The position numbers and the translations under genes were made by a program. Under the pieces are notes generated by a model. It did not search any database, was not told where the DNA came from, and was given only the letters and a program-made list of their open reading frames with translations. A DNA stretch of 64,000 nucleotides, taken from the NCBI GenBank assembly GCA_041662585.1, contig JBAZSG010000003.1, forward strand, positions 33,011-97,010, read 5' to 3'. This DNA comes from Patescibacteria group bacterium (lineage in GTDB: Bacteria > Patescibacteriota > Patescibacteriia > UBA1558 > GWA2-36-10). Below are positions 1 to 48,752 of this stretch, one piece after another. How positions within the stretch are numbered: position 1 is the stretch's first letter; each line of letters starts with the position of its first letter.

Positions 1-53
1 GCAATCTTTCTTTATTTACTTATAGTTGTGTAGCTCGGGCATACAGCTATAAT

Positions 54-1022
54 ATGATAGATTTTGTTAATGTTAGTTACGGCCCTATAGCTGCTTATGG
101 TAATAAAGATTATTGGTATTCTTTGTTGAATATGCAGTATTTGACTGATAGTATAGCTAAAAATATACTTGAAGATGATAAATGGTTGGATAAGGTAAGG
201 AAAAAATCCTTGGATAACTTTGAAAAGTTTAAGGAAAATTTTAATAGACAACTGAAGTTAGTAGAATCAAAACCAATAGATTTTTTAATTTGGGTTATAA
301 AAAATTATCCTGATTATTTTGCTAGTCTAGGTTTATATAATGGACTTTGGCGTTATATGGAATATAATAATAACAGCCAGAGAAATATGGCTGATGGCAG
401 TACTGACAAAATAGCTGATGAAAGAAGTCAAGTGGCGATACTTTATCCTTTGGTAGAAAAGTATCTCAAGAGTGCTATTAAATCGATGCTTTCGAGTCTT
501 AATTTGCCGAAAATAGATTATTTGTTATTAACTAGAGAAGAATTGCAAGATGTTTTGGAAAATAATATGGTAAATAAAGAATTACAAATCCTGATAAAGA
601 AAAGAAGTAAAGGTTATGTATATTTATACAAAGATAATATAGAGACCATTATTTTTGATAAAGATGTTTTGAATAAAGTCAAAGATTATGCTATTCCTAA
701 AGTAAAAAATTCAGACATTGTTTACGGCATAGCAGCCTATGGGGGGCTAGTTAAGGGTAAAGTAGTTTTGGATTTAAAAAACTTTGCATCTTATAAAGAG
801 CCAATTTATATTACAGCCATGACTCATCCAGATGAGGTTCCTTGGCTTAAAAAATGTTTAGCTATAGTAACTGATGAAGGAGGAGTATTGTCTCATGTAG
901 CAGTGATTGCCAGGGAATTTAAAATACCTGCGCTTATGGGTACTAAAGTAGCTACCCAAATATTTAAAGATGGCGATATGGTGGAGGTGGATGCTAATAA
1001 AGGGATTGTGAAGAAAATATGA
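54..1022 (+). CDS. PEP-utilizing-enzyme mobile (phosphohistidine swivel) domain protein, paralog 1; 5' end uncertain (frame open to window start)
   Basis: C-terminus ...IVTDEGGVLSHVAVIAREFKIPALMGTKVATQIFKDGDMVEVDANKGIVKKI matches the PEP-utilizers swivel domain (GGxTSHAAIxAREL in PpsA/PPDK/EI). The N-terminal part is unique. The stop overlaps the next start (ATGA). Confidence 0.6.
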   Translation: MIDFVNVSYGPIAAYGNKDYWYSLLNMQYLTDSIAKNILEDDKWLDKVRKKSLDNFEKFKENFNRQLKLVESKPIDFLIWVIKNYPDYFASLGLYNGLWRYMEYNNNSQRNMADGSTDKIADERSQVAILYPLVEKYLKSAIKSMLSSLNLPKIDYLLLTREELQDVLENNMVNKELQILIKKRSKGYVYLYKDNIETIIFDKDVLNKVKDYAIPKVKNSDIVYGIAAYGGLVKGKVVLDLKNFASYKEPIYITAMTHPDEVPWLKKCLAIVTDEGGVLSHVAVIAREFKIPALMGTKVATQIFKDGDMVEVDANKGIVKKI

Positions 1023-2035
1023 ATTTAGATTTTGATAAATCATTAAATTATGAAAGACACCAACGTGATTATTCTATTGTAGTCACTACCCTTGTGTTTA
1101 GAGGTTTGTACAATCAAAATGCCAAGTTTTTTGGTGTAGCTCCTACGGCTTGTTATCTAATAATTAAAAACGATGTTTTATATCATTATATGTCTAAGTA
1201 TGATGGTAAAAGGCGCATGGAAAATTGGCTTCAAAACAATAATATCAAATCTTTTAAAGATCAAGAAAAAATATATTCTGAAAAATTAGAAAAATTTAAT
1301 AAATTTTATAATCAGCAGCCAGATGATTTATTTTTAGCTTTAAAATTGAGCCACGATTTTTTTGTAGATTTCACAGAAATAATTTTATTGGGTTATGAAC
1401 TGCCTTTGTATATGAAAGATATTGCACCTAAAGAAATTATAGATTTTGCTTTTGCTATTAGGCATAAATACGAAGATGTTCACAAAAGAAATGTTGATAT
1501 AACACTAAAGATTTTAAATAAATTGGAAGAAAAGTATAAAATCGAGAAAAATACATTGTCTTATCTAACTATAGATGAGCTAGAAAAATTTTTAAAAACA
1601 GCCGAGTTGCCAGATATTGAAGATAGAAGAAAATATGTATTAATAAAATATGATGGTGATTATTCTTTTTTCTACGACCAAAAAACTTGGAATATTTTAA
1701 ACCCAAAAATAGCTAAAGAATTTGTCCGTGGTAGGACAGCTTTTAAGGGAAAAGTACAAGGCATAGTAAAAGTAATAAATAAGATAAAAGAGGCTGACGA
1801 TTTGAAAGAAGGAGAGATTTTAATTACCAGTATGACAGACCCTCGCTATGTACCAGCTATGAAAAGAGCCGGAGCTATTGTCACTGATGAAGGAGGTATT
1901 ACTTGTCATGCGGCTATAGTTTCTCGTGAGTTAAAAATTCCGTGTGTTATCGGCACAAAAGTTGCTACGGAGATTTTTAAAAATGGCGATATGGTCGAAG
2001 TCGATGCTAATAGTGGTATAGTTAGAAAAATATGA
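1019..2035 (+). CDS. PEP-utilizing-enzyme mobile domain protein, paralog 2 (unique N-terminal domain)
   Basis: C-terminus ...AIVTDEGGITCHAAIVSRELKIPCVIGTKVATEIFKNGDMVEVDANSGIVRKI. There is a 4-nt overlap with both neighbouring genes. Confidence 0.65.
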   Translation: MNLDFDKSLNYERHQRDYSIVVTTLVFRGLYNQNAKFFGVAPTACYLIIKNDVLYHYMSKYDGKRRMENWLQNNNIKSFKDQEKIYSEKLEKFNKFYNQQPDDLFLALKLSHDFFVDFTEIILLGYELPLYMKDIAPKEIIDFAFAIRHKYEDVHKRNVDITLKILNKLEEKYKIEKNTLSYLTIDELEKFLKTAELPDIEDRRKYVLIKYDGDYSFFYDQKTWNILNPKIAKEFVRGRTAFKGKVQGIVKVINKIKEADDLKEGEILITSMTDPRYVPAMKRAGAIVTDEGGITCHAAIVSRELKIPCVIGTKVATEIFKNGDMVEVDANSGIVRKI

Positions 2036-3438
2036 ATATTATGAAAGTAGATAAATATCAAAGAGTATTTGAAAATCAAAATGTAAGGCCATATTATTCT
2101 ATACCTCACAATCAAGGTTTTGGCGAGCCATTAAAAGAATTGGTTAACTATGAATATGATAGAGTAATATACGTGATTTCAGAATCATACGGTAATAAAG
2201 CATATATTCACGAAGATGAAATAAACAAAGGAGCTAATTATTTTTCTAAAATTTGGAAAGATTCAAAAAAGACTAAGGAGATTTTAGCCGAGATAAGAAA
2301 ACGTTTTTTAAATGCCAAAAAACTAGAATTCAATTTATGGAAAATAGATATAATAAATATCAAGGAAGAAAAATTGGTAAGTAAATTAAATAAAATACAA
2401 GACATGTTACTTAATATTTTAAGTGCTCATGTCATTAGCCAGCCACCTCATATAAAAAGTTTGGAAAAGGAGTTAAATAATAGCCTTGAAAAAATAAAAG
2501 ATGTTGATCAATCATTATTAATTAGATCTTTTACACATTTTGAGGGTGTTTTGCCACACGCAGAGGAAGAAAAAGAAATAGAAAAATATAATAAATTATG
2601 GTCAAATATAGACAGCGATAAGAGAGAGACTATATTAGAAGAGTTGGTAAAAAAATATGGTTGGATAAATGCTGTAGAGGGAGATAAACCATATTCTAAA
2701 GAACATTATAAAAATAAAATAGAAACATATAAAAAGTCTTCTGATATAGAATTGTTAGATTTGAGTAAGTATTCTGTACCGCAAGCAGTAAAAATTGGAA
2801 AACTAATTGGTGAATTAGGCTTTTTACGTTTTTGGTCTAGATTTCATATGTTGGCTCTACATTATCAAATGAAACGTATAGTAAAAGAATTAGCCATCAA
2901 AAAAGAAAATAATTTAATAAATTTAATGACCGTAAAAGAAATTACTAATTATATAAATGGAGATGAAATAAATCTTAAAGAGATAGAAAAAAGAAAGAAA
3001 GGTTATGTGGTTTATTTAAAAAATGGAAAAAGTCATTTAGTGTCTGGCCAAGAAACTGATAAATATATTAAACTTACCAAGGAAGATGAATTGTCTCAAA
3101 AACAGATATCTGGATTTGTAGCATGCAGAGGTTTAATAAAAGCTAAAGCTAGAATTATTGATTTTAATTCAAAAGATTATAATAAAGAAGTATCTCAGTT
3201 TAAAAAAGGAGAAATTCTAGTCACAGGTATGACCCGTCCACAAATTGTACATCTATGTAATAAAGCCTCAGCTATTGTAACTGATGAAGGAGGTATAACA
3301 AGCCATGCAGCGGTAGTCAGTAGAGAATTAAATATTCCTTGTGTAATAGGTACTAAAGATGCCACTAAAATTTTTAAAACGGGAGATTTTTTAGAAGTAG
3401 ATGCCAATAAAGGAATAATAACAAAGATTATTAATTAA
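2032..3438 (+). CDS. PEP-utilizing-enzyme mobile domain protein, paralog 3 (unique 380-aa N-terminal region)
   Basis: C-terminus ...AIVTDEGGITSHAAVVSRELNIPCVIGTKDATKIFKTGDFLEVDANKGIITKI. Confidence 0.65.
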   Translation: MNIMKVDKYQRVFENQNVRPYYSIPHNQGFGEPLKELVNYEYDRVIYVISESYGNKAYIHEDEINKGANYFSKIWKDSKKTKEILAEIRKRFLNAKKLEFNLWKIDIINIKEEKLVSKLNKIQDMLLNILSAHVISQPPHIKSLEKELNNSLEKIKDVDQSLLIRSFTHFEGVLPHAEEEKEIEKYNKLWSNIDSDKRETILEELVKKYGWINAVEGDKPYSKEHYKNKIETYKKSSDIELLDLSKYSVPQAVKIGKLIGELGFLRFWSRFHMLALHYQMKRIVKELAIKKENNLINLMTVKEITNYINGDEINLKEIEKRKKGYVVYLKNGKSHLVSGQETDKYIKLTKEDELSQKQISGFVACRGLIKAKARIIDFNSKDYNKEVSQFKKGEILVTGMTRPQIVHLCNKASAIVTDEGGITSHAAVVSRELNIPCVIGTKDATKIFKTGDFLEVDANKGIITKIIN

Positions 3439-3446
3439 TATAATTT

Positions 3447-4373
3447 ATGAGTGAAAAAGAAATGGAAATTATGCCTCAAGGGGGCATAGAAAAACAAAGC
3501 GAAAAGGAAAGAGGTCTAAATAATAGAATATTGCTTAAAATAATTCGTCATGGTGAAAAAACCCCCGAAGGTGCTTTAACTGATTATGGTAGAGAAAAAA
3601 CTAGAGAGACAGTAGCAAATGACAAAAAAATAATAGAAGGCATACAAAAAGTAAAAGTTATGGGTAGTAATGCTGGTCCTAAAAATGAAGCTGGACAAGC
3701 TAGAGCTTTGGAGACAGCTGATATTTATGCAAACACACTGGTTAATGAGGAATATTCTGATCCAGAAATAATAAAGTATGAATCTCGTGCTAGATCAATA
3801 TTGGAAGTGGTTGGTCAAAATACACAACCGCCTTTTAATTGGGGTAAGGAGTATAAAGAAAATTTACCTGAAAATTTTTCAGAATTATCTGATGAGGATA
3901 AAGCAATTGCATCAGCTGAAGCCAATGAAAAAAATCTGACAAAATTAATGACTATGCCCGAAGCAGAAGATTATCGTCAGGAAATATCAGCTAGGTATGC
4001 TATGTTTATAAATACCTATATCAAAATGATAGACCGTATAGAAAATGATCAAAAGATTATGTATCCAGTAGGGGCTCATGGTGGACAAATAGAATTGTTT
4101 TTACAAAAATGTTTAAAACGTAAAACAGAAGATGGTGATGAAATTATTGGTTTTAAGGATAGTAAAGAACTAGGAGGTTCTTTTAATCCTAGTGAAGGAT
4201 TTTTTATTGATATCACCACTGATCAAAATGGAGAAAAGAAAATAGAATTCAATTTTGATGATCCAAAAAGGTTTGAGGGTGAAGAATTGTCACTTGATTT
4301 AGATACTATGTATGAACTTATAGATAAATATAAAGAAAAGTATGGTTCTTTTTATGATAAACAAAACGATTAA
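3447..4373 (+). CDS. histidine phosphatase superfamily (phosphoglycerate-mutase-like) protein
   Basis: N-terminal LLKIIRHGEKTPEGALTDYGREKTRE carries the RHG catalytic motif. A later VGAHGG matches the second-His motif of the PGM-like fold. Confidence 0.5.
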   Translation: MSEKEMEIMPQGGIEKQSEKERGLNNRILLKIIRHGEKTPEGALTDYGREKTRETVANDKKIIEGIQKVKVMGSNAGPKNEAGQARALETADIYANTLVNEEYSDPEIIKYESRARSILEVVGQNTQPPFNWGKEYKENLPENFSELSDEDKAIASAEANEKNLTKLMTMPEAEDYRQEISARYAMFINTYIKMIDRIENDQKIMYPVGAHGGQIELFLQKCLKRKTEDGDEIIGFKDSKELGGSFNPSEGFFIDITTDQNGEKKIEFNFDDPKRFEGEELSLDLDTMYELIDKYKEKYGSFYDKQND

Positions 4374-4389
4374 TTATTATATAAATAAA

Positions 4390-4431
4390 ATAGAAGTAGA
4401 TGCCACAAAAGGTATAGTGAGGAAAGTATAA
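4390..4431 (+). pseudogene. orphan 3' relic of a PEP-utilizer swivel-domain paralog (..IEVDATKGIVRKV*)
   Basis: The in-frame translation of gaagtagatgccacaaaaggtatagtgaggaaagtataa is EVDATKGIVRKV-stop. That is nearly identical to the paralog C-termini VEVDANKGIVKKI and VEVDANSGIVRKI. A stop lies a few codons upstream. Confidence 0.55.
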
Positions 4432-4496
4432 AATAGGCATTAGACAATTTGGTTATTATTAGCTAAACTTTTAATATAATTATTTATATTTTAAAA

Positions 4497-5330
4497 ATGA
4501 AAATATTGATCATAGGCAAAGGCTATCTGGGTACTCGTTGTGCTGAGGCCTGGAAAAATGCTGTCATTAGCGACAAGATCGTAGTCACAGTCAAAGACGT
4601 GGAAGAGCTTATTGACCAACATCAGCCCGATGCTATTTTAAATGCGGCTGGTGTAGTGGGTAAACCAAATGTAGATTGGTGCGAAAACCATCAAATAGAA
4701 ACTATCAAAGGCAATACTATTTTGCCGTTGATTATAGCGGAAGCTTGTCAAAACAAGGGCGTTTATCTTTTACATATGGCCACCGGTTGTATTTTTTATG
4801 GACAGTCTCCTCACGGTGGTCCATGGACAGAAGAGGATTACGGCAATCCAACAGCGGTTTACACCAAATCAAAACTGGCGGCTGATTTAGCTCTGTCTAC
4901 TTTGCCCAATGTCGGTATTGCTCGTATTCGTATGCCTTTTGATAGCTGCTCTCATCCAGCTAATCTCATTGATAAGCTGGCTAAATATGAAAAAATAATT
5001 GATGTAGAAAATTCCATGACGGTAGTAGATGATATGATTGATGTTTTTTATCAATTACTTGAAAAGAAAGCTGAAGGGATATTTCATGTGACCAATCCAG
5101 GGTCCATCAAACACAAAGAAATAATGGAGCTTTACAAAAAATATGTAGATCCAAATCACAGAAATGAATGGATTACCGAAGAAGATTTGGTCAAGCTCGG
5201 GCTGGCCAATAAAAAAAGATCAAATAATATTATGACCTCTTTAAATCTGCCTAAATATGGTATTAAAATGCGGCCGATAAAAGAAGCCGTTGAAGAGGCT
5301 CTTAAAAAATACGCTAAAGGTAAAAAATAA
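4497..5330 (+). CDS. dTDP-4-dehydrorhamnose reductase-like (RmlD-family) sugar-nucleotide reductase
   Basis: MKILIIGKGYLGTRCAEAW Rossmann N-terminus, RmlD-like length and layout. GC is noticeably higher (~40-45%) than in the flanks. Confidence 0.5.
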   Translation: MKILIIGKGYLGTRCAEAWKNAVISDKIVVTVKDVEELIDQHQPDAILNAAGVVGKPNVDWCENHQIETIKGNTILPLIIAEACQNKGVYLLHMATGCIFYGQSPHGGPWTEEDYGNPTAVYTKSKLAADLALSTLPNVGIARIRMPFDSCSHPANLIDKLAKYEKIIDVENSMTVVDDMIDVFYQLLEKKAEGIFHVTNPGSIKHKEIMELYKKYVDPNHRNEWITEEDLVKLGLANKKRSNNIMTSLNLPKYGIKMRPIKEAVEEALKKYAKGKK

Positions 5331-5332
5331 TT

Positions 5333-6061
5333 ATGAGAGGAATAATTTTAGCCGGCGGAGCCGGTAATAGATTGAAACCCTTGACTAAAGTAACTTCTAA
5401 ACAGTTACTGCCTATTTATGATCAGCCGATGATCTATTATCCACTGCAGACTTTAATCAATGGCGGTATCCAAGATATTTTGGTGATTTCTGATCCTAAT
5501 AATATTGGCAATATTGTCCGGTTATTAGGTAGTGGTAAAGATTTTGGTGTCAGAATTCGCTATGAGGTCCAAGATAGTCCCGACGGTCTAGCTCAGGCAT
5601 TTTTGCTTGGTGAGATTTTTATCGGTGATGATGATGTAACTCTTATACTGGGCGACAATCTTTTTGTCGGCGATGGTAAATTTTTGGAGGAAGCGATTCG
5701 AAGTTTTAAGGGTGGTGGTCGGGTTTTTGCCAAGGAAGTGCCAGATCCAGAAAGATATGGTGTAGTAGATTTTGACAAAAAGGGGCAAGCCATTAGCATT
5801 GAAGAAAAACCAAAAAATCCCAAAAGTAATTATGCGGTCACTGGTTTATATATTTATGATAATGGTGTAATTGCCAAAGCCAAAAGTTTGAAACCTTCGG
5901 CTCGCGGAGAATTGGAAATTACCGATGTTAATAATCTTTACCTTAAAGAAGGAAGATTAGATGTCAGAATTTATAAAGATTATTGGCTAGACACCGGTAC
6001 TTTTGATGCTTTACTTGAAGCCGGAAATACTATTGCTAAATTGAGAAAAAATGCTAAATAA
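5333..6061 (+). CDS. glucose-1-phosphate thymidylyltransferase-like nucleotidyltransferase (RmlA family, short form)
   Basis: MRGIILAGGAGNRLKPLTKVTSKQLLPIYDQPMIYYPL is the canonical RmlA/RfbA N-terminus. Confidence 0.65.
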   Translation: MRGIILAGGAGNRLKPLTKVTSKQLLPIYDQPMIYYPLQTLINGGIQDILVISDPNNIGNIVRLLGSGKDFGVRIRYEVQDSPDGLAQAFLLGEIFIGDDDVTLILGDNLFVGDGKFLEEAIRSFKGGGRVFAKEVPDPERYGVVDFDKKGQAISIEEKPKNPKSNYAVTGLYIYDNGVIAKAKSLKPSARGELEITDVNNLYLKEGRLDVRIYKDYWLDTGTFDALLEAGNTIAKLRKNAK

Positions 6062-6063
6062 GT

Positions 6064-6833
6064 ATGAATTTTGAAAATGTTAATGCTAATCTAGAAAAAG
6101 AAAGTAAAGGTGAAAATGTAATTGTTCATTCTGTTTTTATTCGTCATGGAGAAAAATTTCATGATATAAATAATCCAGAAACAGAACTTACTCCTAAAGG
6201 GAGAGAGGCGAGTCGTGAAATTGGAAAAAATAGGCCGGAAGTTGATGCTATAAAAGGCTATAGTAGTGATACTCAAAGAACCCAAACTATGATCCAAATA
6301 ATGAATTTACCAAGAAATTGCAAGGGATAAAAGAAGAGTTGCTAGGAAAAGGATATGATGATTTATCAGAGAATCAAAAAGAAGCCAGGTTAGATGAATA
6401 CAACTCTGTTATTACTGATTGTTATTTAGCTTTGGGTGATCAGAGACCAGATCCAAATACTTATTCCCCAGTAGAAACAGCCGCTACTATGGCCAAGATA
6501 TTGGATAATAATATTAGGATGGCCGATAGATTAAAATCTAATTCAGAAGTTGATTTGGTCAATGCCACACATGATTTTAATATAGTAGCTTTCTTAAAGG
6601 AAGTCTTGGTAAGAAAAATAGATGATAAAAAAGTAGTTGGTTTTGATTCTGTTAAGGAAATAGGAGGAAGTATGGAATTTAATGGTGGTTTTGAAGTTTT
6701 AATAAAGACAGATAATGATGGGCACAAAACTCTAAAAATATTATTTAGAGGAGAAGAATACGAAATAGATGAGACAAGATTAACAGAATTAGTACAAATA
6801 GCCAAAGATTTAAAAAAGCAAGATGAAAAATAA
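6064..6833 (+). pseudogene. histidine phosphatase superfamily paralog, interrupted by a frameshift (ORFs 6064..6330 and 6318..6833)
   Basis: ORF1 has VFIRHGEKFHDINNPETELTPKGREASRE (RHG motif). ORF2 (KEIGGSMEFNGGFEVLIKTDNDGHKTLKILFRGEEYE, VNATHDFN) aligns to the C-terminal two-thirds of 3447..4373. The frame switch lies around 6300-6330. Confidence 0.5.
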
Positions 6834-6850
6834 TATAATAATTTATATAT

Positions 6851-7147
6851 ATGCCAAAATTAAATATAAAACCTTCAAGCAAGGCTAAGCTTAAGATTAA
6901 AAGGCCTATTAAAACAGAATCTAAGTTAGAAAAACTTAATAAAATATTAGATAGAGTACGTCCAGCACTAGAGCGAGATGGAGGCAATCTAGAGCTGATC
7001 AATTTTGATGAAAAAAATGGTTTAGTTGAAATTACATTTCAAGGTGCTTGCGCTCATTGTTCTTTGGCTGATGTTACATTAAAACATTTGATAGAATCTG
7101 AAATTAGAGCTCAAATGCCAGAAATAAAAGAAGTAAGATCTATATGA
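6851..7147 (+). CDS. NifU-like (Nfu-type) Fe-S cluster domain protein
   Basis: VRPALERDGGNLELINFDEKNGLVEITFQGACAHCSLADVTLKHLIESEI matches the NifU C-terminal / Nfu domain pattern (G-x-C-x-x-C ... TLK). The stop overlaps the start of the next gene. Confidence 0.6.
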   Translation: MPKLNIKPSSKAKLKIKRPIKTESKLEKLNKILDRVRPALERDGGNLELINFDEKNGLVEITFQGACAHCSLADVTLKHLIESEIRAQMPEIKEVRSI

Positions 7148-8502
7148 GTAGAAAGTATGATTTTATGTCAAAACCTTGGGTATATTCTATTTCTAGAAAT
7201 ATACATTTTTGGCACGATGAATTATCTATTAAATATAGTTATGCAGGTTGTAAGAAATTAAAATTACCTTCTTTTCATTATGCTCGGATTAATAATACAG
7301 GTCATGGAGATTTTTTTTATTTAGAAACAGGAGAGTATGGTAAGGATAAATTTAATAAAGCTTTAGAAGATAATTTTAAAGATAAAAAATATATTAATTT
7401 TTTAGAAAATTATTATATCAGTAATGGAGAAAAATTGGTTGAACATTCTAAAAAATTAAAATTAGATTATAAAGAATTTAAAGATTATTTTACAGAATAT
7501 GGAATAATGTGTCCTACTTTAGATGGTACTAACACAGGCAGTAAAATTATTACAGATTATTTATTAAATAAGTTATCTAGCTATCCTGATGCTACTGACA
7601 TTATTTCTTATTACTCTCAAATGCCTAAAAAAAGTCCCATGCAGAAGATGGATGAGGAGTTAGCTAAAGGCATTAAAAATAAAGTAGATAAAAAGAAATT
7701 AGCTAAAACATTATATAATAAGTATTGTTGGATACCAATTAGTTTTATTGGAGATCCTTGGGATTTAAAATATTTTGAAGATAAGATTAAAAAATATAGT
7801 CCAAATAAAGAACATAAATTATCTAAACCAAAAGTTCAAATAGCAGATAATTTAATGTATTACTTAAAATTATTAGGTAAAATAGCTTATTTAAATGAAT
7901 ATAGAAAATCTGTTTTTACTAGAGCCAATTATTATATTAGGCCGTTATTAGAAAAAATTGCTCAGGAGTATAATTTGGGTACTTGGAAAGAAATAAATCT
8001 TTTAGCTAGTAATGAGATATTAGATTTATTAGATGGTAAAGATGATTATCAAAAAAAATTGATAAAAGAGAGAAGAAAGGACTGGTTAATGTATGCGGTT
8101 GGTCGAGAGGGTATTGATTATGTCCATGGAAAGTTGGTAAAAGATTTTAGAAATAAATTTATGCCAAAAGCGAATGGTTTAAATTATGTTTCAGGTACAA
8201 TTGCCAATAAAGGTAAGGTCAGAGGTGTAGTAAAAATTATATATGAACCAAAAGATTTTAATAAGTTTAAGAAAGGGGATATATTAGTAGCTAAGATGAC
8301 CTCTATTGATTTTATACCAATAATGAAGCGTGCGGCAGCTTTTGTTACTAACGAAGGGGGTTTAGCATGTCATGCAGCTATAGTTTCTCGTGAATTAAAC
8401 ATCCCCTGTATAATAGGAGCTAAGATAGCTACCGAAGTTTTTAAAGACGGTGACAGAGTAGAAGTAGATGCTAATAGAGGTATAGTTAAGAAGATAAAAT
8501 AA
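7144..8502 (+). CDS. PEP-utilizing-enzyme mobile domain protein, paralog 4 (unique N-terminal domain)
   Basis: C-terminus ...AAFVTNEGGLACHAAIVSRELNIPCIIGAKIATEVFKDGDRVEVDANRGIVKKIK. Confidence 0.65.
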   Translation: MSRKYDFMSKPWVYSISRNIHFWHDELSIKYSYAGCKKLKLPSFHYARINNTGHGDFFYLETGEYGKDKFNKALEDNFKDKKYINFLENYYISNGEKLVEHSKKLKLDYKEFKDYFTEYGIMCPTLDGTNTGSKIITDYLLNKLSSYPDATDIISYYSQMPKKSPMQKMDEELAKGIKNKVDKKKLAKTLYNKYCWIPISFIGDPWDLKYFEDKIKKYSPNKEHKLSKPKVQIADNLMYYLKLLGKIAYLNEYRKSVFTRANYYIRPLLEKIAQEYNLGTWKEINLLASNEILDLLDGKDDYQKKLIKERRKDWLMYAVGREGIDYVHGKLVKDFRNKFMPKANGLNYVSGTIANKGKVRGVVKIIYEPKDFNKFKKGDILVAKMTSIDFIPIMKRAAAFVTNEGGLACHAAIVSRELNIPCIIGAKIATEVFKDGDRVEVDANRGIVKKIK

Positions 8503-8520
8503 TTTTAGACAAACGGAAAA

Positions 8521-8573
8521 GCGGCGACACGTTGTGTGTGTCGCCGCTTTGTTGTTAGTCCGTTGAGCGGACT
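8521..8573. terminator. pair of GC-rich hairpins (gcggcgacac..gtgtcgccgc and agtccgttgagcggact) acting as a bidirectional terminator
   Basis: Perfect inverted repeats, followed by a T-rich run on either strand. Confidence 0.55.
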
Positions 8574-9147
8574 ACTCTTCAATCCAGACGGCATCGATAC
8601 TGCCGTCGTCGTATAGGCGGAAGCGAATCGCTTCCATGGCATCGAGGCTGTGAGCATCGGTCATGCCGAGACACTTGGCCAGCATGGGGATGGTGGGATC
8701 GTGGAAGATCCCGACACCGTGCTGACCCGAATCCATCAGGTCGAACATCTGCTTGAGAGCATTGCGGGCTCCAATGTTGAAGTCAACGAGTACCTGCCGG
8801 TCGATGTTTACGAGCACGGCCTCCATATTGGAGAGGCCACCCTTGATGTCGGCCCGGACATGGTCGGTGATGATAGTGGCGAACAGTTCGCTACTACCGA
8901 GACCGTGGATCGGGTCATGCATCTTCACATGAGTGAAGGCCTGATTGGCTGTCATCATGGCGATGGCGGTTTCGCAGGTGCGGGCGAGAGGCCCCCAGAA
9001 GAGATGGTGAATATTCATGTTGCCTTCGTCGTAGCGCTCCGAGCCTATTTCGTAGGCGTAGGTGGCTCCGTCATAGGAGACATGATTGCCACCGGTATCT
9101 TTGTGCGTGTGGCGATACAAGTCTACGGTTTTGGTTATCTGGGCCAT
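8572..9147 (-). CDS. GC-rich histidine phosphatase superfamily-like protein (start placed at MAQITK..)
   Basis: Strong GC3 codon periodicity. The SD AGGGAGG lies 6 nt upstream of the ATG at 9147. DLYRHTHKD and later WGPLARTCETA resemble the RHG and S-x-L-x-RA-x-QTA motifs of the PGM/SixA fold. The ORF track's longer start at 9213 has no RBS. Confidence 0.45.
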   Translation of the reverse strand: MAQITKTVDLYRHTHKDTGGNHVSYDGATYAYEIGSERYDEGNMNIHHLFWGPLARTCETAIAMMTANQAFTHVKMHDPIHGLGSSELFATIITDHVRADIKGGLSNMEAVLVNIDRQVLVDFNIGARNALKQMFDLMDSGQHGVGIFHDPTIPMLAKCLGMTDAHSLDAMEAIRFRLYDDGSIDAVWIEE

Positions 9148-9222
9148 TTTGGGCCTCCCTGTTTTGGGTTTTGTATGGTACGCCCCTAAATATAGGGGAT
9201 TCTTGTATTTCAAGAATATATT

Positions 9223-9251
9223 AGTATAGCATATTTTTTATTTAATGTCAA
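9223..9251 (-). promoter_or_regulatory. sigma70-like promoter TTGACA-N17-(TGc)TATACT for 8572..9147
   Basis: The reverse complement reads ttgacattaaataaaaaatatgctatact, with an extended -10 TGn. Confidence 0.5.
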
Positions 9252-9292
9252 TATATATAATATATATTATATAGTAAAAAATACTATAAACA

Positions 9293-9321
9293 TTGACATT
9301 TATACTATATCATGCTAGACT
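9293..9321 (+). promoter_or_regulatory. sigma70-like promoter TTGACA-N17-(TGc)TAGACT for 9341..11149
   Basis: cattgacatttatactatatcatgctagact sits 20 nt before the ATG and is divergent from the minus-strand promoter. Confidence 0.45.
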
Positions 9322-9340
9322 GAGTAATTGATAAAAACAT

Positions 9341-11149
9341 ATGTTGGATAAAATTATAAATTCAAAAACTCGTCTAGCTATCTTGTCTTTATTTTTTAAA
9401 AATCAAGACAAAGAATTTTATGCTGGAGAGATTATCAAACAAAGCAATATGGATGCAGCTAATGTCCATAAAGAATTAAAAAATTTGGTAGCTGGTAAAT
9501 TTGTATTGCAAGAAGATAAATCAAGTAGAAAATATTTTTCTTTAAATAAAGATAATATTTTTTATAATGGTTTGGATAAGGTATTTAGTCAATATAAAGT
9601 ATCCATATCTGGAGATGTGTGGTTTTCTTTGGAATCAATGCCAAATTATTATCCTATGGTGGTGGCTTTTACTTGGAATGTAAAACGAGCCAATGATTTT
9701 TTACAAAGCCGTGGCTATAAAAATAAATTTACCAAACTACTCACTACCTATAACAATAATATCAATGATTTGCTTTTGATTAAAAAAGAATTTGACGACT
9801 TATCACAAGAAACTTTAGATAAGATTAATTCTGATCCAGATTGGGGGCATAGATATGTTGATGATTTATCACAAGCCATCCCTAAGTTGGTTAAAGCCAC
9901 TAAAGATTTGGAAAAAGTAAATTTGGGCAAATTATCCAATGAAGAATTATATAATTTATATCAGGAGTATTATGATGCTTATGGACGTCTTCATAGATTT
10001 CACTGGGTACAAACCATCGCTGATTTTGGTGACAATTTGTTTTCTAAATATCTAATGAATTATTTGCGTCATAAGGTCAAAGATAGCCAATATTCTTTGG
10101 GAGAAGTCTTTTCTACTTTGACAACTCCGATAGAAGACGGTCAAGCCGCTAAAGAGTATCAAAATTTATTAGGTATCTTAAAAAATATAATAGCTGATGA
10201 AAATCTAAAACAATATTTTAAAGATACCGAAACTCGTATTATTTACAGAGATTTAAAAAATGTTAATAAGGTTGTTGATGAACAAATTTCTGAACATACT
10301 GGGCTCTATGGTTATCTTGGTTATGGTATGGCCGGCCCTGGTTGGGGTAAAGACTATTTTATTGATATTTTAGGATCTTTGGTCAGACAGAATACCAATC
10401 CTAGTGAATTATTGGATAATTTACAAAAAGACAAAATAAACATTGAAGCCAAACAGCAGAAATTTATTAAACAACTAGAGGTAGATGAAAAACATCAGCA
10501 ATTGTTTGAAGTAGCTAGAGGTTTGGTTTTTACCAAAGGTACTCGCAAGGAATCTATGTTTTACAGTTATAGTGTTATAGAAAATTTGTTTAGAGAAATT
10601 GGTCGCCGTTATTATTTATCGGTCAATCAGGTGAGATATTTTTATCCCCATGAATTTGAAGATTTATTGCTTCACAATAAATTTAGTGCGGCTAAACTAA
10701 ATGAGCGTTATAAATTTAGTTTGCAATATTCAGTAGGTGATTATCATCAAGATAAATTATTAGAAGGTGAAGAAGCTAGAAAATTTTTAGAAAATTTTAA
10801 TATTGTCAAAGAGGAAATCGTTGATATTAAAGTAATGGAAGGAGATTGTGCTTCTCCTGGTCGAGCTCGTGGTAGTGCAAAAATTATCAATATTCCCAAA
10901 GATATGAGTAAAATGGAACAAGGCGATGTGCTTATATCTATCGCCACTACTCCGGATTTAGTACCAGCTATTAAAAAGGCTAGTGCTATTGTCACTGACG
11001 TCGGAGGTATTACTTGTCATGCTGCCATTGTTTCTCGTGAATTGGGCATTCCTTGTGTTATTGGTACTAAAATCGCTACCAAAGCCTTAAAAGATGGTGA
11101 TGTAGTAGATGTAGATGCTACGCATGGTAAAGTTACGATTGTCCGGTAG
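9341..11149 (+). CDS. winged-helix (ArsR/MarR-like) DNA-binding domain fused to a PEP-utilizing-enzyme mobile domain, paralog 5
   Basis: N-terminus KTRLAILSLFFKNQDKEFYAGEIIKQSNMDAANVHKELKNLVAGKFV is a wHTH pattern. C-terminus ...ASAIVTDVGGITCHAAIVSRELGIPCVIGTKIATKALKDGDVVDVDATHGKVTIVR. Confidence 0.6.
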   Translation: MLDKIINSKTRLAILSLFFKNQDKEFYAGEIIKQSNMDAANVHKELKNLVAGKFVLQEDKSSRKYFSLNKDNIFYNGLDKVFSQYKVSISGDVWFSLESMPNYYPMVVAFTWNVKRANDFLQSRGYKNKFTKLLTTYNNNINDLLLIKKEFDDLSQETLDKINSDPDWGHRYVDDLSQAIPKLVKATKDLEKVNLGKLSNEELYNLYQEYYDAYGRLHRFHWVQTIADFGDNLFSKYLMNYLRHKVKDSQYSLGEVFSTLTTPIEDGQAAKEYQNLLGILKNIIADENLKQYFKDTETRIIYRDLKNVNKVVDEQISEHTGLYGYLGYGMAGPGWGKDYFIDILGSLVRQNTNPSELLDNLQKDKINIEAKQQKFIKQLEVDEKHQQLFEVARGLVFTKGTRKESMFYSYSVIENLFREIGRRYYLSVNQVRYFYPHEFEDLLLHNKFSAAKLNERYKFSLQYSVGDYHQDKLLEGEEARKFLENFNIVKEEIVDIKVMEGDCASPGRARGSAKIINIPKDMSKMEQGDVLISIATTPDLVPAIKKASAIVTDVGGITCHAAIVSRELGIPCVIGTKIATKALKDGDVVDVDATHGKVTIVR

Positions 11150-11215
11150 ACAAAAGGTCCATTGGACTTTTTGTTTTAAGCATACTAAAATTAAGATAAA
11201 TATTAATTTATTACT

Positions 11216-12154
11216 ATGGAATTAGTCAGAGATTTTAAAAAAATAGATAAAAATCATGTCGCTTTGGCTGGAGGTAAGGGGGCATCTTTAGGAGAAATGA
11301 CCAAAGCGGGTATTCCTGTACCACCTGGTTTTGTGGTTTTATCTGGAGCTTTTGACAGATTTTTAGAAGAAACAGATTTGAATGTAGAAATAGAAGCTAT
11401 TTTAAAAACAGTTAAACATGAAGATGTTAATTCTGTGGAAAAGTCTTCTTTAAAAATAAGAGATTTAATTGCTGATGCTAAGATGCCAGAGGATATTGCC
11501 AAAGAAATTAAAGTATCTTTTAAAAAGCTTGATGCTAAATATGTAGCTGTGCGTTCTTCTGCTACAGCTGAGGATTCATCTATTGCATCTTGGGCCGGAG
11601 AATTGGAGTCATATCTTAATACCACAGATAAAGATTTGCTTGATAATGTCAAAAAATGTTGGTCATCACTTTTTACACCTCGGGCAATTTTTTATCGTTT
11701 TGAAAAAAAATTACATAACACTAAGGTATCTGTAGCTGTGGTAGTACAAGCAATGGTGCAGTCACAAGTGAGTGGTATTGTTTTTACTGTTCATCCAGTC
11801 ACAGAAGATCAGAAACAGATGATTATTGAAGCTGGTTGGGGATTGGGTGAAGCTATTGTTTCAGGTATGGTTACTCCCGATGCTTATGTTATAGATAAAA
11901 CAGATTTTTCTATTGTGGATATCAATATTTCAGATCAAGCCAAATACATTATCAAAACTAACAAAGGCAACAAATTTACAGATGTGCCTAGTGATAAACG
12001 TGAAGAGCAAAAATTGTCTGGTGCTCAGATTGTAGAGCTAGCCAAAATTTGTGTGGATATTGAAAAACACTACGGCTTTCCTTGTGATATAGAATGGGCT
12101 ATGGAAAAAAATAAATTTTATATTACCCAGTCCAGACCAATCACCACTTTATAA
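11216..12154 (+). CDS. free-standing PEP synthase / pyruvate phosphate dikinase N-terminal ATP-grasp (PPDK_N) domain protein
   Basis: VALAGGKGASLGEMTKAGIPVPPGFVVLSGAF matches the PpsA N-terminus (GGKGANLGEL..GxxVPxGF). Only 312 aa, with no swivel and no PEP-binding domain. Confidence 0.7.
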   Translation: MELVRDFKKIDKNHVALAGGKGASLGEMTKAGIPVPPGFVVLSGAFDRFLEETDLNVEIEAILKTVKHEDVNSVEKSSLKIRDLIADAKMPEDIAKEIKVSFKKLDAKYVAVRSSATAEDSSIASWAGELESYLNTTDKDLLDNVKKCWSSLFTPRAIFYRFEKKLHNTKVSVAVVVQAMVQSQVSGIVFTVHPVTEDQKQMIIEAGWGLGEAIVSGMVTPDAYVIDKTDFSIVDINISDQAKYIIKTNKGNKFTDVPSDKREEQKLSGAQIVELAKICVDIEKHYGFPCDIEWAMEKNKFYITQSRPITTL

Positions 12155-12171
12155 ATTTTATATAAAAGAAA

Positions 12172-12198
12172 AGAGCCCAGTTGTTTAGACAGGGCTCT
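12172..12198. terminator. bidirectional rho-independent terminator hairpin (agagccc..gggctct)
   Basis: The inverted repeat is flanked by an A-run upstream and a T-run downstream. Confidence 0.55.
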
Positions 12199-12221
12199 TT
12201 TAAATTCGCGGTGTTGGCGAA

Positions 12222-12719
12222 TTATACCTCGGTTTCGCCGAGTTGGTCGAGAATCGACCAGCCGATTTCACCGTTTTCGTCGATGGTGATCTCGATGACT
12301 GAGCCGCTTTTGGCGGCTTCTATACCCAGAGACTTGGCAAATGGTCTGCCGGTGCATAGCACAGCCCCATCGGGCAGAGACTCCAGGAAAGCAGGAATGG
12401 CGGGCGCCATATCAGCGATGCCGGTGTAGGCATCATAGGCACAGTGGTTGCCGTCGGCAAAGACGATGGTCGGCTGACCATCGATCATGTCGAGCGACGT
12501 GGCGTCACCCAGAAGCAGAGTTGAGCGGGTCATGGTCAGACCCAGTGTGGCAGCAACGTGCCGATGTCGGCGACCAGTGCCGCATATTACAGCCGCAGGA
12601 TTTTCAGGGAGGAGTCCCTTGAGGGACTCAATCTGATTTACTCCTTTGAGAGTCATCAGGGGGTCAGCCCCATCGCTCTTGTCGCCGTGCAATACGGCGA
12701 AAAATTGATTGACTTTCAC
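12222..12719 (-). CDS. GC-rich SixA-like (phosphohistidine phosphatase-type) histidine phosphatase family protein, GTG start
   Basis: GC3-rich codons. FFAVLHGDKSDGADPLMTLKG ... VICGTGRRHRHVAATLGL has the same layout as SixA (IMRHGDA...RPLT.NG ... VLVSPFLRAEQT), but with L in place of the catalytic R. Confidence 0.4.
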   Translation of the reverse strand: MKVNQFFAVLHGDKSDGADPLMTLKGVNQIESLKGLLPENPAAVICGTGRRHRHVAATLGLTMTRSTLLLGDATSLDMIDGQPTIVFADGNHCAYDAYTGIADMAPAIPAFLESLPDGAVLCTGRPFAKSLGIEAAKSGSVIEITIDENGEIGWSILDQLGETEV

Positions 12720-12766
12720 TTTTTAGCCTTTCTTTTGGGTTGTAGGGTACTTGATTTTAATATAAT

Positions 12767-12795
12767 ATTATAGCATATTTTTATACTTTTGTCAA
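12767..12795 (-). promoter_or_regulatory. sigma70-like promoter TTGACA-N17-(TGc)TATAAT for 12222..12719
   Basis: The reverse complement reads ttgacaaaagtataaaaatatgctataat. Confidence 0.5.
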
Positions 12796-12845
12796 TGATA
12801 GTATTTTTTTAAAAATAATTATTTTGAGGTGGTGTTTTATTGCTA

Positions 12846-12874
12846 TTGACAATAATCACTATATATGCTAATAT
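12846..12874 (+). promoter_or_regulatory. consensus sigma70 promoter TTGACA-N17-TAATAT
   Basis: ttgacaataatcactatatatgctaatat. It drives the GC-rich transcript that ends at the 13286-13319 terminator. Confidence 0.5.
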
Positions 12875-13027
12875 ACAAAATACTTTGATTTTGTAGTGTC
12901 TATCGCTTGTATAAGCAAGGACACTCAAGTCAGGGTAGTATCATTACAATCAAAAAAGGTTGCGACCAAAAGTTGGTTGCAACCAAACAAACACTGAAGT
13001 TGGCCAAGCAGGCCAAGGAGGTTCTTG

Positions 13028-13120
13028 ATGCGTACCTACAAGAAGCATCACTCGCCCCCGTCCGTGGTTTTTACGAATATTATCACCAAAAAGGCGAAGA
13101 AGACCGCCACGACGAGCTGA
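13028..13120 (+). CDS. small ORF MRTYKKHHSPPSVVFTNIITKKAKKTATTS with a perfect SD
   Basis: AAGGAGG lies 6 nt upstream of the ATG. The track's alternative 12907..13167 ORF starts with TTG inside the hairpins and lacks an RBS. Confidence 0.3.
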   Translation: MRTYKKHHSPPSVVFTNIITKKAKKTATTS

Positions 13121-13285
13121 CCGAGATCCGGCCGGCGGTCGTGATTCTGATGAGTATCAGAAAATAAGCTCAATCAGACAACGACCTGCCGAACGAACGA
13201 ACATCAAAAAACTGAATTCGCCGGCGCAAGCCGTACAAAAATGACGGCGATTTGCCGACGATTCAGCAGTGCTCTTCTGTGTATG

Positions 13286-13319
13286 CCGCCCCACCTAGCT
13301 AGGTCGGGGCGGTTTTTTA
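13286..13319 (+). terminator. strong rho-independent terminator (ccgccccacctag/ctaggtcggggcgg + T7)
   Basis: A 12-13-bp GC stem followed directly by TTTTTTATT. Confidence 0.7.
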
Positions 13320-13394
13320 TTGACATTTTTTCTTAAAATTGTTCAAATATTGGGTAGATTTTTTATAAATAATGTGTTAAAATAAGTACATAAT

Positions 13395-13754
13395 ATGTCT
13401 ATAATTCGCACCAGCAAAGTATTATATAAAGATAAATTAGCTTTTTGGCTAATTAATTTTTCTTTTTTGTCTATATTAGCCACTTGGTTTTTATTTTTTA
13501 TTAAAAGAATCAAATATGATCCTTTGGCTGTACTACATTACAATATTTACTCGGGGATTGATATTTTGGGTGCTTGGTACATACTTTTTATTATTCCGGT
13601 TTTAGTTTTAATTGTATCATTTTTAGATTTCTTTTTAGCGGTATTACTTTGGACTAAAGTAAGGGTCATGAGTTATTTTTTATTGCTTACTATTTTACTT
13701 ATAAATGTTTTTATGTTTTTATTTTTATATAATATATTAAATTACAATTTATAA
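13395..13754 (+). CDS. small integral membrane protein (3 predicted TM segments), unknown function
   Basis: Highly hydrophobic 119-aa ORF immediately upstream of mraY. Confidence 0.4.
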   Translation: MSIIRTSKVLYKDKLAFWLINFSFLSILATWFLFFIKRIKYDPLAVLHYNIYSGIDILGAWYILFIIPVLVLIVSFLDFFLAVLLWTKVRVMSYFLLLTILLINVFMFLFLYNILNYNL

Positions 13755-27974: not shown

Positions 27975-27975
27975 T

Positions 27976-29145: not shown

Positions 29146-29159
29146 TTTTTTATTTAAAA

Positions 29160-48687: not shown

Positions 48688-48716
48688 TTGACAAAATAGA
48701 TAAAATATAGTATTAT
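48688..48716 (+). promoter_or_regulatory. consensus promoter TTGACA-N17-TATTAT (copy 1 of a duplicated promoter)
   Basis: agcattgacaaaatagataaaatatagtattat. An SD AAGGA precedes the ATG at 48753. Confidence 0.5.
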
Positions 48717-48752
48717 ACTCTATAAATAATAAAGCTCTTTCAAGGAATTTAT

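Follow-up and report, generated by a model that had tools for sequence, protein, structure and literature searches.

Two-component dikinases divide a chemistry in which phosphate passes from ATP to a histidine and then to an acceptor between the products of adjoining genes. HpeHI (hydroxyphenylethanone kinase) is a biochemically proven split enzyme of this type, and in HpeHI, CreHI and PpsAB (phenylphosphate synthase) alike a separate ATP-grasp subunit is partnered by a subunit in which an RPH-type substrate-binding domain precedes a C-terminal His swivel. These enzymes are 1:1 pairs that act on phenolics in the aromatic catabolism of Actinobacteria and Proteobacteria, and the phosphatase of the Hpe pathway belongs to the HAD family and not to His_Phos. 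Rifampin phosphotransferase (RPH; PDB 5hv1, 5fbs) carries its ATP-grasp domain fused within one chain and is described as belonging to a large family whose substrates have yet to be explored; an Arg666-Glu667-Lys670 network serves its second phosphotransfer, and Glu667 and Lys670 are catalytically essential (PMC4844700). PEP synthase (PEPS) and pyruvate phosphate dikinase (PPDK) have a TIM barrel and a central swivel. TalE, a PEPS/PPDK-like kinase that forms the N-P bond in phosphoramidon biosynthesis, is a single protein from a Streptomyces natural-product cluster; its partners are a source of dTDP-6-deoxysugar and a glycosyltransferase that attaches the sugar to the newly installed phosphate.

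The locus described here, from an ultra-small CPR/Patescibacteria bacterium, is probably a split RPH-type dikinase with six carrier genes (P0-P5) to one ATP-grasp gene (AG), in a family of which split versions are already known. Our view of it covers a window of 64 kb, the whole stretch of DNA that was analysed, and a further 9 kb out of a 702-kb contig, the rest of which may hold a second ATP-grasp gene or a TIM-barrel protein. As in HpeHI, CreHI and PpsAB, the ATP-grasp subunit, a homolog of the N-terminal domain of RPH and PEPS, is a protein of its own encoded beside carriers that end in a His swivel, and the dikinase chemistry is probably the same. Unlike these pairs, the locus does not have one carrier per ATP-grasp gene but a ratio of 6:1, which elsewhere reaches 13:0-1; it also differs in occurring in CPR and DPANN organisms, in its short-class and winged-helix-fused carriers, and in having histidine phosphatases dedicated to it. 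Against the PRK08296 models, taken here to represent PpsA-like proteins, scores reach at most 97 bits, with cut-offs of at least 578. RPH differs in its fused ATP-grasp domain, since AG is separate here and fused forms occur only in some other loci; identity to the RPH sequence stands at 17%, the counterpart of Arg666 is another residue or is displaced, and the substrate is surely different.

The original prediction of one stand-alone ATP-grasp gene with many His-carrier genes, whose substrate-side domains are divergent, was borne out. Five ORFs on the forward strand of the window end in a C-terminal phospho-His swivel that is significant in a Pfam search (PF00391), and a sixth paralog, P0 (333 aa; L083 7915-8916), lies outside the window, just upstream of P1. 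P1 (1-1022 in the window; L083 8913-10004; PF00391 7e-21), which had been counted as one of five complete ORFs, is truncated by the window edge, with its frame open to base 1; its start lies 70 nt before the window and its true length is 363 aa. P1, with an RPH-like core and the swivel, and P2 (1019-2035; 338 aa; PF00391 2.7e-26) are short-class carriers, as is P0. The long class comprises P3 (2032-3438; 468 aa; PF00391 4e-25), P4 (7144-8502; 452 aa), with a RIF-binding-like domain and the swivel, and P5 (9341-11149), with an additional winged helix at its N-terminus. The first three carrier genes are indeed coupled by ATGA overlaps, P2 having one on each side, and another joins P0 to P1. AG (11216-12154, forward strand) follows P5 by 66 nt and encodes an intact 312-aa protein that is, as predicted, the PPDK_N ATP-grasp domain alone (PF01326 1e-100). 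The PEP/pyruvate TIM barrel (PF02896) was not found in the window, also as predicted, and an RPH-type substrate-binding domain precedes the swivel; the ancestor was therefore an RPH-type dikinase and not the PEP synthase that had been proposed as the enzyme split.

The six swivels score 74-91 bits against PF00391 (gathering threshold 23.1) and all hold the catalytic His in a T/S-x-x-GG-x-x-x-H loop, as TDEGG(I/V/L)xxH, TNEGGLACH or TDVGGITCH; a GGxT[CS]HAAI motif is common to PEPS and the swivels of the locus. They had been described as almost identical, which overstates identities of 45-67% by local alignment and of 37-55% when 115 aa are compared. The DNA-level similarity of their 3' ends, which had been thought to permit cassette-like recombination, is accounted for by protein conservation and AT-biased codons, and the longest exact match is at most 20 nt. 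Gene conversion or cassette exchange is undetectable as an ongoing process: the fraction of identical codons is the same in within-genome pairs as in between-genome non-orthologous pairs, and the swivel sequences group by orthology. Two paralogs of a relative have an identical 51-nt 3' end in common, and tblastn found a relic of a swivel-gene 3' end at 4384-4431 on the forward strand (KIEVDATKGIVRKV, then a stop). Together with the spacer that follows it, this relic matches the 3' end of S4 and the RmlD promoter spacer of the relative at 33/51 nt, where the other paralogs give 14-23/51 nt. The relic and the shared 51-nt end show occasional rearrangement at carrier 3' ends.

The N-terminal domains, said to be mutually unrecognisable, are so in pairwise BLAST with the exception of P3-P4 (1e-7), but not in profile comparison. 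With the swivels removed, hhalign relates P3, P4 and P5 to one another at E-values of 1e-57 to 1e-67, P0 to P1 at 1e-16, P1 to P2 at 1e-6, and P1 to the long class at 1e-8 to 1e-9; P0 and P2 link to the RPH-like long class weakly, with hhalign probabilities of 30-75%. Profile methods and structure prediction thus overturn the BLAST view, and what had been taken for interchangeable, unrelated substrate domains are diverged paralogs of one domain. The predicted structures of P4 (pLDDT 93.6) and P5 (pLDDT 90.7) match RPH 5hv1 over 379 and 436 residues respectively; the predicted fold is that of RPH, which agrees with the suggested likeness to RPH-type enzymes, and the RIF-binding-domain fold stands directly before the C-terminal swivel. 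The invariant E252 and K255 of the P4 family fall on RPH Glu667 and Lys670 when aligned, with an invariant Arg one helical turn from the pair. The P4-family N-E-Y-R-K, aligned to R-E-Y-P-K of RPH, keeps the Glu and Lys and has the Arg shifted by three positions, the Arg666 position being Asn in P4. Across the family the columns at this site read K/R, D/E, x, R, K. Of 241 array proteins, 196 have R in the Arg column and 229 have E/D in a downstream LTxxE column, and all six paralogs conform at both positions. Because all NCBIfam equivalog scores are far under their cut-offs, homology does not allow a substrate to be assigned.

Among PDB chains AG matches PEPS at 1.6e-72, RPH at 1e-61 and a 387-aa stand-alone chain, 9goj, at 3e-53. 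Its ortholog in a Komeilibacteria relative is 83% identical and that of P2, kS4, 68% identical; orthologs in this relative span 68-83% identity, and the genes are therefore under purifying selection. A search of related genomes for the architecture showed that carrier arrays recur in CPR and DPANN: 56 of the 79 fetched loci hold same-strand arrays of 2-13 carriers, and no locus has more than one AG match against up to 13 carriers. Where AG stands alone it is -4 to +31 nt from a carrier in 11/19 cases. Natural fusions elsewhere join AG to one carrier (796 and 854 aa) or, in single ORFs, to two or three carrier units (1197 and 1617 aa), and library proteins with 2-4 tandem units were found. No AG lies within the fetched 10-kb flanks of 56/79 loci, arrays of 7-13 carriers included, so the carriers there may be charged by an AG in trans or by a different phosphodonor. 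We infer that in the present locus a single AG is shared by the six carriers. Existing annotation names the carrier family "PEP-utilizing enzyme" or miscalls it PEP synthase, and in the literature on PEP-utilizer and swivel proteins in CPR, DPANN and Patescibacteria we found no description of the layout of one ATP-grasp gene with many carriers.

The sole recurrent companions of the arrays are histidine-phosphatase-like genes. His_Phos_1 is the top family among intercalated array genes (9/75), such genes are present in 21/43 loci with at least three core genes, and 57% of them are no more than 150 nt away from a core gene, a proximity seen for 19% of other ORFs. In our locus H1 (3447-4373, forward strand; 308 aa) begins 8 nt after P3 and encodes a divergent member; H1 has no direct Pfam match, and its placement comes from homology to its paralog H2 and from a jackhmmer family that takes in Pfam His_Phos_1 members and is co-directional in the arrays of at least 11 loci. 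H2 (6064-6833, forward strand) is split by a frameshift into ORFs 6064-6330 and 6318-6833; H2a scores 24.9 bits against PF00300 (cut-off 21.7), and an intact 280-aa ortholog with 86-92% identity is present in L086. G1 (8572-9147, reverse strand; likely start ATG at 9147, with the ORF reaching 9213) belongs, like H1 and H2, to branch 1 of the histidine phosphatase superfamily, whose signature is an RHG motif, a second Arg and a catalytic His. The RH..R..H signature of its family is invariant (R12-H13, R56, H149), and it matches PGAM/PhoE/SixA-type PDB chains at 1e-7. Its promoter (9251 to 9223) is near consensus, and a terminator-like hairpin with a 15-bp stem (8518-8550) separates the convergent P4 and G1.

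G1 is GC-rich (54%, GC3 0.70), as is G2 (12222-12719, reverse strand; 165 aa; GC 56%), which is convergent with AG and has a consensus promoter (12795 to 12767). G2 has no Pfam match and a best PDB family match of E 1.8, and we rejected it as a histidine phosphatase, since the first Arg and second His are missing. Its six homologs are all antisense with core genes on their flanks, and its mRNA has a folding z of -6.5; the G1 and G2 companion families are always antisense and GC-rich, with unusually structured mRNAs. These patches are not RNA genes, as there is no Rfam match at E ≤0.1 in 1-14000 and the codon-position divergence is that of protein-coding sequence; the window holds no tRNA. Recent horizontal transfer is rejected as the source of the composition because syntenic orthologs retain the same high GC3 although they differ at 47% of third positions, and 17/17 homologs in other lineages are GC3-enriched. 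A fourth GC island (54108-54974) has no relation to G1 or G2. The GC-rich antisense phosphatase genes present a separate puzzle of gene-level base composition.

In the present lineage the array lies within a string of nucleotide-deoxysugar, glycosyltransferase and mur genes, and two genes assigned by Pfam family sit inside it: an RmlD-like reductase (4497-5330, forward strand) and an RmlA-like sugar-1-phosphate nucleotidylyltransferase (5333-6061, forward strand), with Komeilibacteria orthologs of 91% and 99% identity. The carriers stand among RmlA/RmlB/RmlD-like and glycosyltransferase genes, a parallel to TalE in gene context. This setting is lineage-specific and was rejected as a general one; flanks elsewhere are heterogeneous, with no family in more than 4/142 flanking genes. 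The proposed coupling of P4 to a NifU-like gene (6851-7147, forward strand; PF01106 5e-22) is real in that the two share an ATGA overlap, but it is not conserved, as the Komeilibacteria relative has NifU without P4.

We think it probable that these genes specify an RPH-type, two-component small-molecule dikinase with multiple carriers. AG would bind ATP and place the beta-phosphate on the swivel His of a carrier, with release of AMP and Pi; the charged swivel would swing back to the RIF-binding-like domain of the same carrier, where the conserved Arg/Glu/Lys site would hand it on to an acceptor bound there. The six anciently diverged carriers differ in predicted N-terminal "arm" regions and would therefore have different acceptors, most likely sugar or envelope precursors given the surrounding gene string. 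H1, H2 and G1 might strip the phosphate from either the product or the phospho-His carrier, or they might serve as mutases. The model builds on domain identities, folds, motif conservation, linkage and recurrence, and proposes from these the sharing of AG, the role of the phosphatases, regulation by P5 and the substrates.

The same mechanism could serve defence, each carrier phosphorylating a different antibiotic or toxin from a host or neighbour. RPH on rifampin and ZPH on zearalenone are models for such a battery, and the closest solved fold is that of a resistance enzyme. Membership varies between close relatives: P3, H1 and P4 occur here alone, the Komeilibacteria relative having no P3, and S3 occurs in the relative alone. 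The relic gene end fits such turnover, and CPR and DPANN organisms are episymbionts. However, the paralog types are old, conserved orthogroups, with more than 100 full-length homologs of the P4 type and about 50% full-length identity for the P5 type across many Patescibacteria, which fits fixed metabolic substrates better; dedicated phosphatases beside the carriers would reverse the phosphorylation; and no resistance model matched above cut-off, nor did a PADLOC defence-system search find anything apart from the winged helix. We therefore regard a detoxification role as unlikely.

The winged helix predicted in P5 occupies approximately residues 1-90 (9341-9610) and has the ArsR/MarR/HxlR-type H-H-H-beta-beta order; its DNA binding is putative. 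Its candidate operator is the conserved control region between the divergent G1 and P5 (9199-9288), with two inverted repeats, ATTCTTG-N5-CAAGAAT (9199-9217) and TATAGTA-N5-TACTATA (9270-9288), the second beside the P5 -35 box. The region aligns with that of the relative, with one compensatory change. The palindrome is found in all orthologous loci and its exact match is unique in the window, with one other match at one mismatch (48706-48724). P5 probably autoregulates the divergent G1 and P5-AG promoters.

This palindrome and the conserved P5-type fusion would also suit phospho-His relay or sensor proteins in a PTS-Ntr-like network, in which AG charges the carriers, ligands bound by the N-domains gate their phospho-His state, SixA-like phosphatases reset them and the P5 winged helix is the output. 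G1, its catalytic residues intact, is divergently paired with AG, a winged-helix carrier or a carrier in 7/7 close homologs, and the SixA-type chain 4hbz is among its PDB matches (E 0.0035). The swivel is also common to Enzyme I of the PTS relays (EI/NPr/SixA), where, as here, a histidine-phosphatase gene is coupled to phospho-His carriers. Yet the donor here is an ATP-grasp and not a PEP-binding TIM barrel, and phospho-His is a putative target of G1 and H1. The carriers have an enzyme-like acceptor site, and the apparently retained RPH second-phosphotransfer site (Glu/Lys and the invariant Arg) would imply transfer to a bound acceptor; only 5/260 carriers have a DNA-binding domain, and HpeH alone moves phosphate between small molecules. 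A relay is thus quite improbable. Duplicated or fragmented ppsA genes, as a broken gluconeogenic PEP synthase or pseudogenes, are refuted for the genes in view and scarcely credible otherwise: PEPS/PPDK proteins match best in sequence to both the swivel (1e-42) and the ATP-grasp, true PEP synthases being nearer than RPH in each case, but PF02896 is absent from all 260 carriers as from the window, the swivel is C-terminal, the N-domains have the RPH fold, the orthologs are under purifying selection, and TIGR01418/PRK06464, for which the cut-off is 740 bits, give scores of 88-336 bits.

Read as split RPH-type dikinases that probably share an ATP-grasp, these genes offer a biochemical model open to direct testing, and they carry the two-component dikinase subfamily, itself defined only recently, far past aromatic catabolism. 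The PEP synthase label can distort metabolic reconstructions, for example where gluconeogenesis is inferred from it. Much of microbial diversity belongs to CPR and DPANN organisms, whose genomes are tiny and whose processing of host-derived material is poorly understood; a family that expands to 6-13 tandem copies where the whole genome measures 0.7-1 Mb must matter to them. More speculatively, these lineages may have in common a modular toolkit, in which one ATP-grasp "charger" and arrays of carriers with dozens of specificities would take over from conventional kinases the phosphorylation of envelope precursors or of metabolites that the cell has scavenged, checked by phosphatases whose antisense, GC-rich, RNA-structured genes would provide built-in expression control.

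The five ORFs originally predicted to end in a phosphohistidine swivel are present in this DNA of about 30% GC, each with a C-terminal PF00391 domain (E 7e-21 to 3e-26) and its catalytic histidine, and the 312-residue product of 11216-12154 (+), here AG, is the ATP-grasp half only, matching PPDK_N at 1e-100 with no other domain. The predicted ATGA overlaps, NifU gene and winged helix on the fifth carrier are all real, and no PF02896 PEP/pyruvate TIM barrel was found in the carriers or the large ORFs scanned. Searches of the 64 kb with tblastn gave no further swivel or ATP-grasp copy except a 15-codon relic. The DNA is part of a 702-kb metagenomic contig, which its NCBI-named relatives assign to Patescibacteria (CPR), near Komeilibacteria. 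The first carrier gene, P1 (54-1022), had been called complete; its reading frame is open to base 1 and encodes 363 residues on the source contig, where a sixth paralog, P0 (333 residues), precedes it, and P0-P1-P2-P3 are therefore four genes linked by ATGA overlaps.

The swivels, described beforehand as almost identical, share 45-67% identity when aligned locally and 37-55% over 115 residues. The N-terminal domains had been thought mutually unrecognisable, and pairwise searches with the swivel removed are indeed mostly blank; however, P3 and P4, the sole pair detected in this way, match at 1e-7, and profiles link the others. In profile-profile comparisons of the N-domains alone, P3, P4 and P5 match at E 1e-57 to 1e-67 over 300-340 columns, P0 matches P1 at 1e-16, P1 matches P2 at 1e-6, and P1 matches the long class at 1e-8 to 1e-9 over 70-90 columns adjoining the swivel. 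These matches indicate one diverged family with two classes, long (P3, P4, P5) and short (P0, P1, P2).

The AlphaFold models of P4 and P5, with 48 and 43 homologs as input, have high confidence (pLDDT 93.6 and 90.7). An HMM alignment places the invariant N251-E252-Y-R254-K255 of the P4 family onto R666-E667-Y-P-K670 of rifampin phosphotransferase (RPH), where the second phosphotransfer requires Glu667 and Arg666, and Lys670 lies in the same network (PMC4844700). Across 241 array proteins the columns matching this network read K/R, D/E, any residue, R (196/241) and K, and further downstream the glutamate position of LTxxE is acidic (E or D) in 229/241; the arginine and the acidic residue are kept in all six window paralogs. 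Taken together, the models and motifs identify the carriers as subunits of the HpeH/CreH/PpsA type, in which a RIF-binding-like substrate domain is joined to a swivel. The likeness to RPH and its modular logic in the original prediction were thus correct, while the split PEP synthase and the unrelated N-domains are not borne out. AG is the counterpart of HpeI or PpsB, and its best matches among solved structures are to PEP synthases (1.6e-72), RPH (1e-61) and a 387-residue stand-alone chain, 9goj (3e-53). Two-component dikinases of the HpeHI type are established biochemically (PMC12167813).

A scan of one genome per species yielded 79 loci chosen by similarity to P4 and belonging to CPR phyla and DPANN archaea by their record labels, although some of the MAG labels look unreliable. 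At least two same-strand carrier genes are found in 56 of these loci and at least four in 32, the largest array holding 13 carriers in 21 kb; ATP-grasp matches never exceed one per locus, and one is present in 23/79. Because many contigs end within arrays, these counts are lower bounds. The swivel is terminal in all 260 carrier ORFs (tail of at most 18 residues), and for 11 of the 19 AG genes that stand alone, the distance to a carrier gene is -4 to +31 nt. Natural fusions join AG to one carrier (796 and 854 residues), and single ORFs of 1197 and 1617 residues encode AG and, after it, two or three full carrier units (L025 829-4422 (+) and L038 8192-13045 (+)). An exhaustive search with the P5 N-domain alone returned 938 cluster representatives, 470 of them at 1e-10, and some matches are 1000-2300 residues long with 2-4 tandem units. 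Some library proteins of 1500-2300 residues carry 3-4 tandem carrier N-domain units (P0211, P0219 and P0228). Recurrence, adjacency and fusions support one ATP-grasp protein charging many carriers, short of proof.

We conclude that the locus probably encodes a multi-carrier two-component dikinase, on the strength of its folds, motifs, linkage, recurrence and purifying selection. AG with ATP would load the swivel histidine of a carrier, which would then hand the phosphate to an acceptor bound in the RIF-binding-like domain of the same carrier; all six carriers probably use the single AG. A second reading, in which the carriers are a battery inactivating antibiotics or toxins, we consider unlikely. 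A phospho-His regulatory relay seems slightly less probable again. A fragmented ppsA is refuted for the genes in view, with their HpeH-type carriers and no TIM barrel, and is very improbable.

The dikinase arrays have phosphatase companions. His_Phos_1 is the commonest Pfam family among 75 genes intercalated in arrays (9/75), and low-molecular-weight, HD and purple-acid phosphatases also occur there. With jackhmmer, His_Phos-like genes were found in 24/79 loci and in 21/43 loci with at least three core genes (carriers and AG), and 57% of them are no more than 150 nt away from a core gene, compared with 19% of other ORFs. The window has H1 (3447-4373, +), a His_Phos-like gene, and H2 (6064-6833, +), a His_Phos gene split between overlapping ORFs at 6064-6330 and 6318-6833. 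The H2 ortholog in a syntenic Komeilibacteria relative (locus L086) is one intact 280-residue protein, 86-92% identical, and the split marks a frameshift pseudogene, or else an assembly error that recurs in two further assemblies, from other samples, covering these bases. The antisense gene G1 (8572-9213, -) also belongs to the histidine phosphatase family; its own family keeps an invariant RH..R..H and matches PGAM/PhoE/CobC/SixA-type chains (best 1e-7). A second antisense gene, G2 (12222-12719, -), represents a small gene family within carrier arrays, for which no relatives of known fold were detected. The phosphatases may act on the products or on phospho-His.

G1 and G2 have a GC content of 54-56% and a GC3 of 0.61-0.70, against a genome GC3 of about 0.2. 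Divergence of 0.47 at third positions versus 0.13-0.31 at positions 1 and 2 marks both as coding, and their syntenic orthologs keep a GC3 of 0.74 and 0.56 despite 47% third-position divergence. Homologs of the two genes occur in loci L004, L006, L008, L009, L021, L025, L033, L042, L055, L058, L068, L082 and L086. Of those examined in other CPR lineages, 17 of 17 are GC3-enriched, exceeding nearby carrier genes by 0.13-0.44, and every one of the 17 is antisense to the array; H1/H2-type genes are of ordinary composition and co-directional with the array in 10/11 examined. Among G1 homologs, the closest seven each have AG, a wHTH-carrier or a carrier as their divergent partner, and G2 homologs are flanked by core genes in 6/6. 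The mRNAs fold more stably than dinucleotide shuffles, which do not preserve codon periodicity (z of -6.5 for the window G2; family means of -3.2 and -2.8 versus -0.7 for controls). Each gene has its own near-consensus promoter.

Other GC-rich segments were observed in the window. A patch at 12846-13310 (+), of about 51% GC, has a promoter-like site (12846-12874) and ends near 13290 in a GC-rich hairpin and then a T-run; its 86-residue ORF (12907-13167) has no Pfam match and the patch no Rfam match, and in the Komeilibacteria relative the corresponding interval is a gap of just 204 nt. A gene at 54108-54974 (+), of 52% GC and GC3 0.58, runs antisense to its neighbours and adjoins a 2049-residue ORF (55092-61241, -) with no Pfam match. 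Its 288-residue product, unrelated to G1 or G2 and with no Pfam or PDB match, seems on visual inspection to combine a signal-peptide-like segment at its N-terminus with a body rich in Ala, Glu and Lys, possibly coiled-coil. Genes for two tyrosine recombinases of the phage-integrase family are near neighbours at 39258-40229 and 40724-41668 (+).

The N-terminus of P5 is an ArsR/HxlR/MarR-like winged helix; this architecture is kept in about 80 homologs of about 604 residues, and the order of wHTH-carrier then AG also occurs in a Falkowbacteria chromosome. The G1/P5 divergent intergenic region (9199-9288) is well conserved between genomes and holds two inverted repeats. TATAGTA-N5-TACTATA adjoins the P5 -35 box, is the sole exact match in the window (one match with a single mismatch lies at 48706-48724) and is present at all orthologous sites; ATTCTTG-N5-CAAGAAT shows a compensatory change in the relative. 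These repeats may serve as operators bound by the P5 winged helix, or may form an RNA hairpin at the 5' end of G1, and P5 may autoregulate.

The Komeilibacteria relative (GCA_001818445.1) has the order HIT, RmlB-like, four short carriers (S1-S4), RmlD, RmlA, the intact His_Phos gene, NifU, G1 homolog, P5, AG, G2 homolog and MraY. Orthologs are 77% (P0-S1), 70% (P1-S2), 68% (P2-S4), 80% (P5) and 83% (AG) identical. The relative is without P3, H1 and P4, and the window is without S3; the predicted coupling of NifU to P4 exists in the window but is lineage-specific. The relic (4384-4431, +), the end of a swivel gene between H1 and the RmlD promoter, aligns together with its downstream spacer to the S4 3' end and RmlD promoter spacer of the relative at 33/51 nt, versus 14-23/51 for other paralogs. 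This implies that a carrier gene once ended there and that P3 and H1 now lie between P2 and the old end. The adjacent S2 and S3 have an identical 51-nt 3' end (L086 14544-14594 and 15607-15657), and both this and the relic record rearrangement or local conversion at the 3' ends of carriers. The cassette exchange proposed through conserved 3' DNA is wrong, since the swivels group by orthology and window paralogs match exactly over 20 nt at most; the identical-codon fraction at identical residues is the same within and between genomes. Array turnover occurs, at times at conserved 3' ends; concerted evolution does not. The RmlA-like protein (5333-6061, +) is 99% identical to its Komeilibacteria ortholog, where neighbouring genes show 58-92%; its third positions differ at 31%, which argues for very strong purifying selection and not recent transfer.

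Genes flanking the arrays are heterogeneous, with no family above 4/142, and the nucleotide-sugar, glycosyltransferase and mur context seen in the window lineage and Komeilibacteria is therefore lineage-specific. A second envelope-polysaccharide cluster lies downstream of the mur genes (25465-32416, +: flippase, two GT1, GT2, Wzy-like, GT2); taken with the GT2/GT4 genes that precede the window on the source contig (L083 1-4245), it indicates that glycan synthesis dominates the array region. The acceptors in this lineage may be sugar or envelope precursors. The TalE system, whose sugar-phosphate bridge is the work of a PEPS-like kinase, dTDP-rhamnose and a glycosyltransferase, is a precedent by context, and the Hpe pathway likewise couples its kinase to a later phosphatase, but of the HAD family. 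We found no description of the carrier expansion in CPR/DPANN in the literature searched or in the Southlakia genetics paper (main text). The enzyme class is already known; what is distinctive here is the one-to-many array, its spread in CPR/DPANN, its phosphatase companions and the wHTH fusion.
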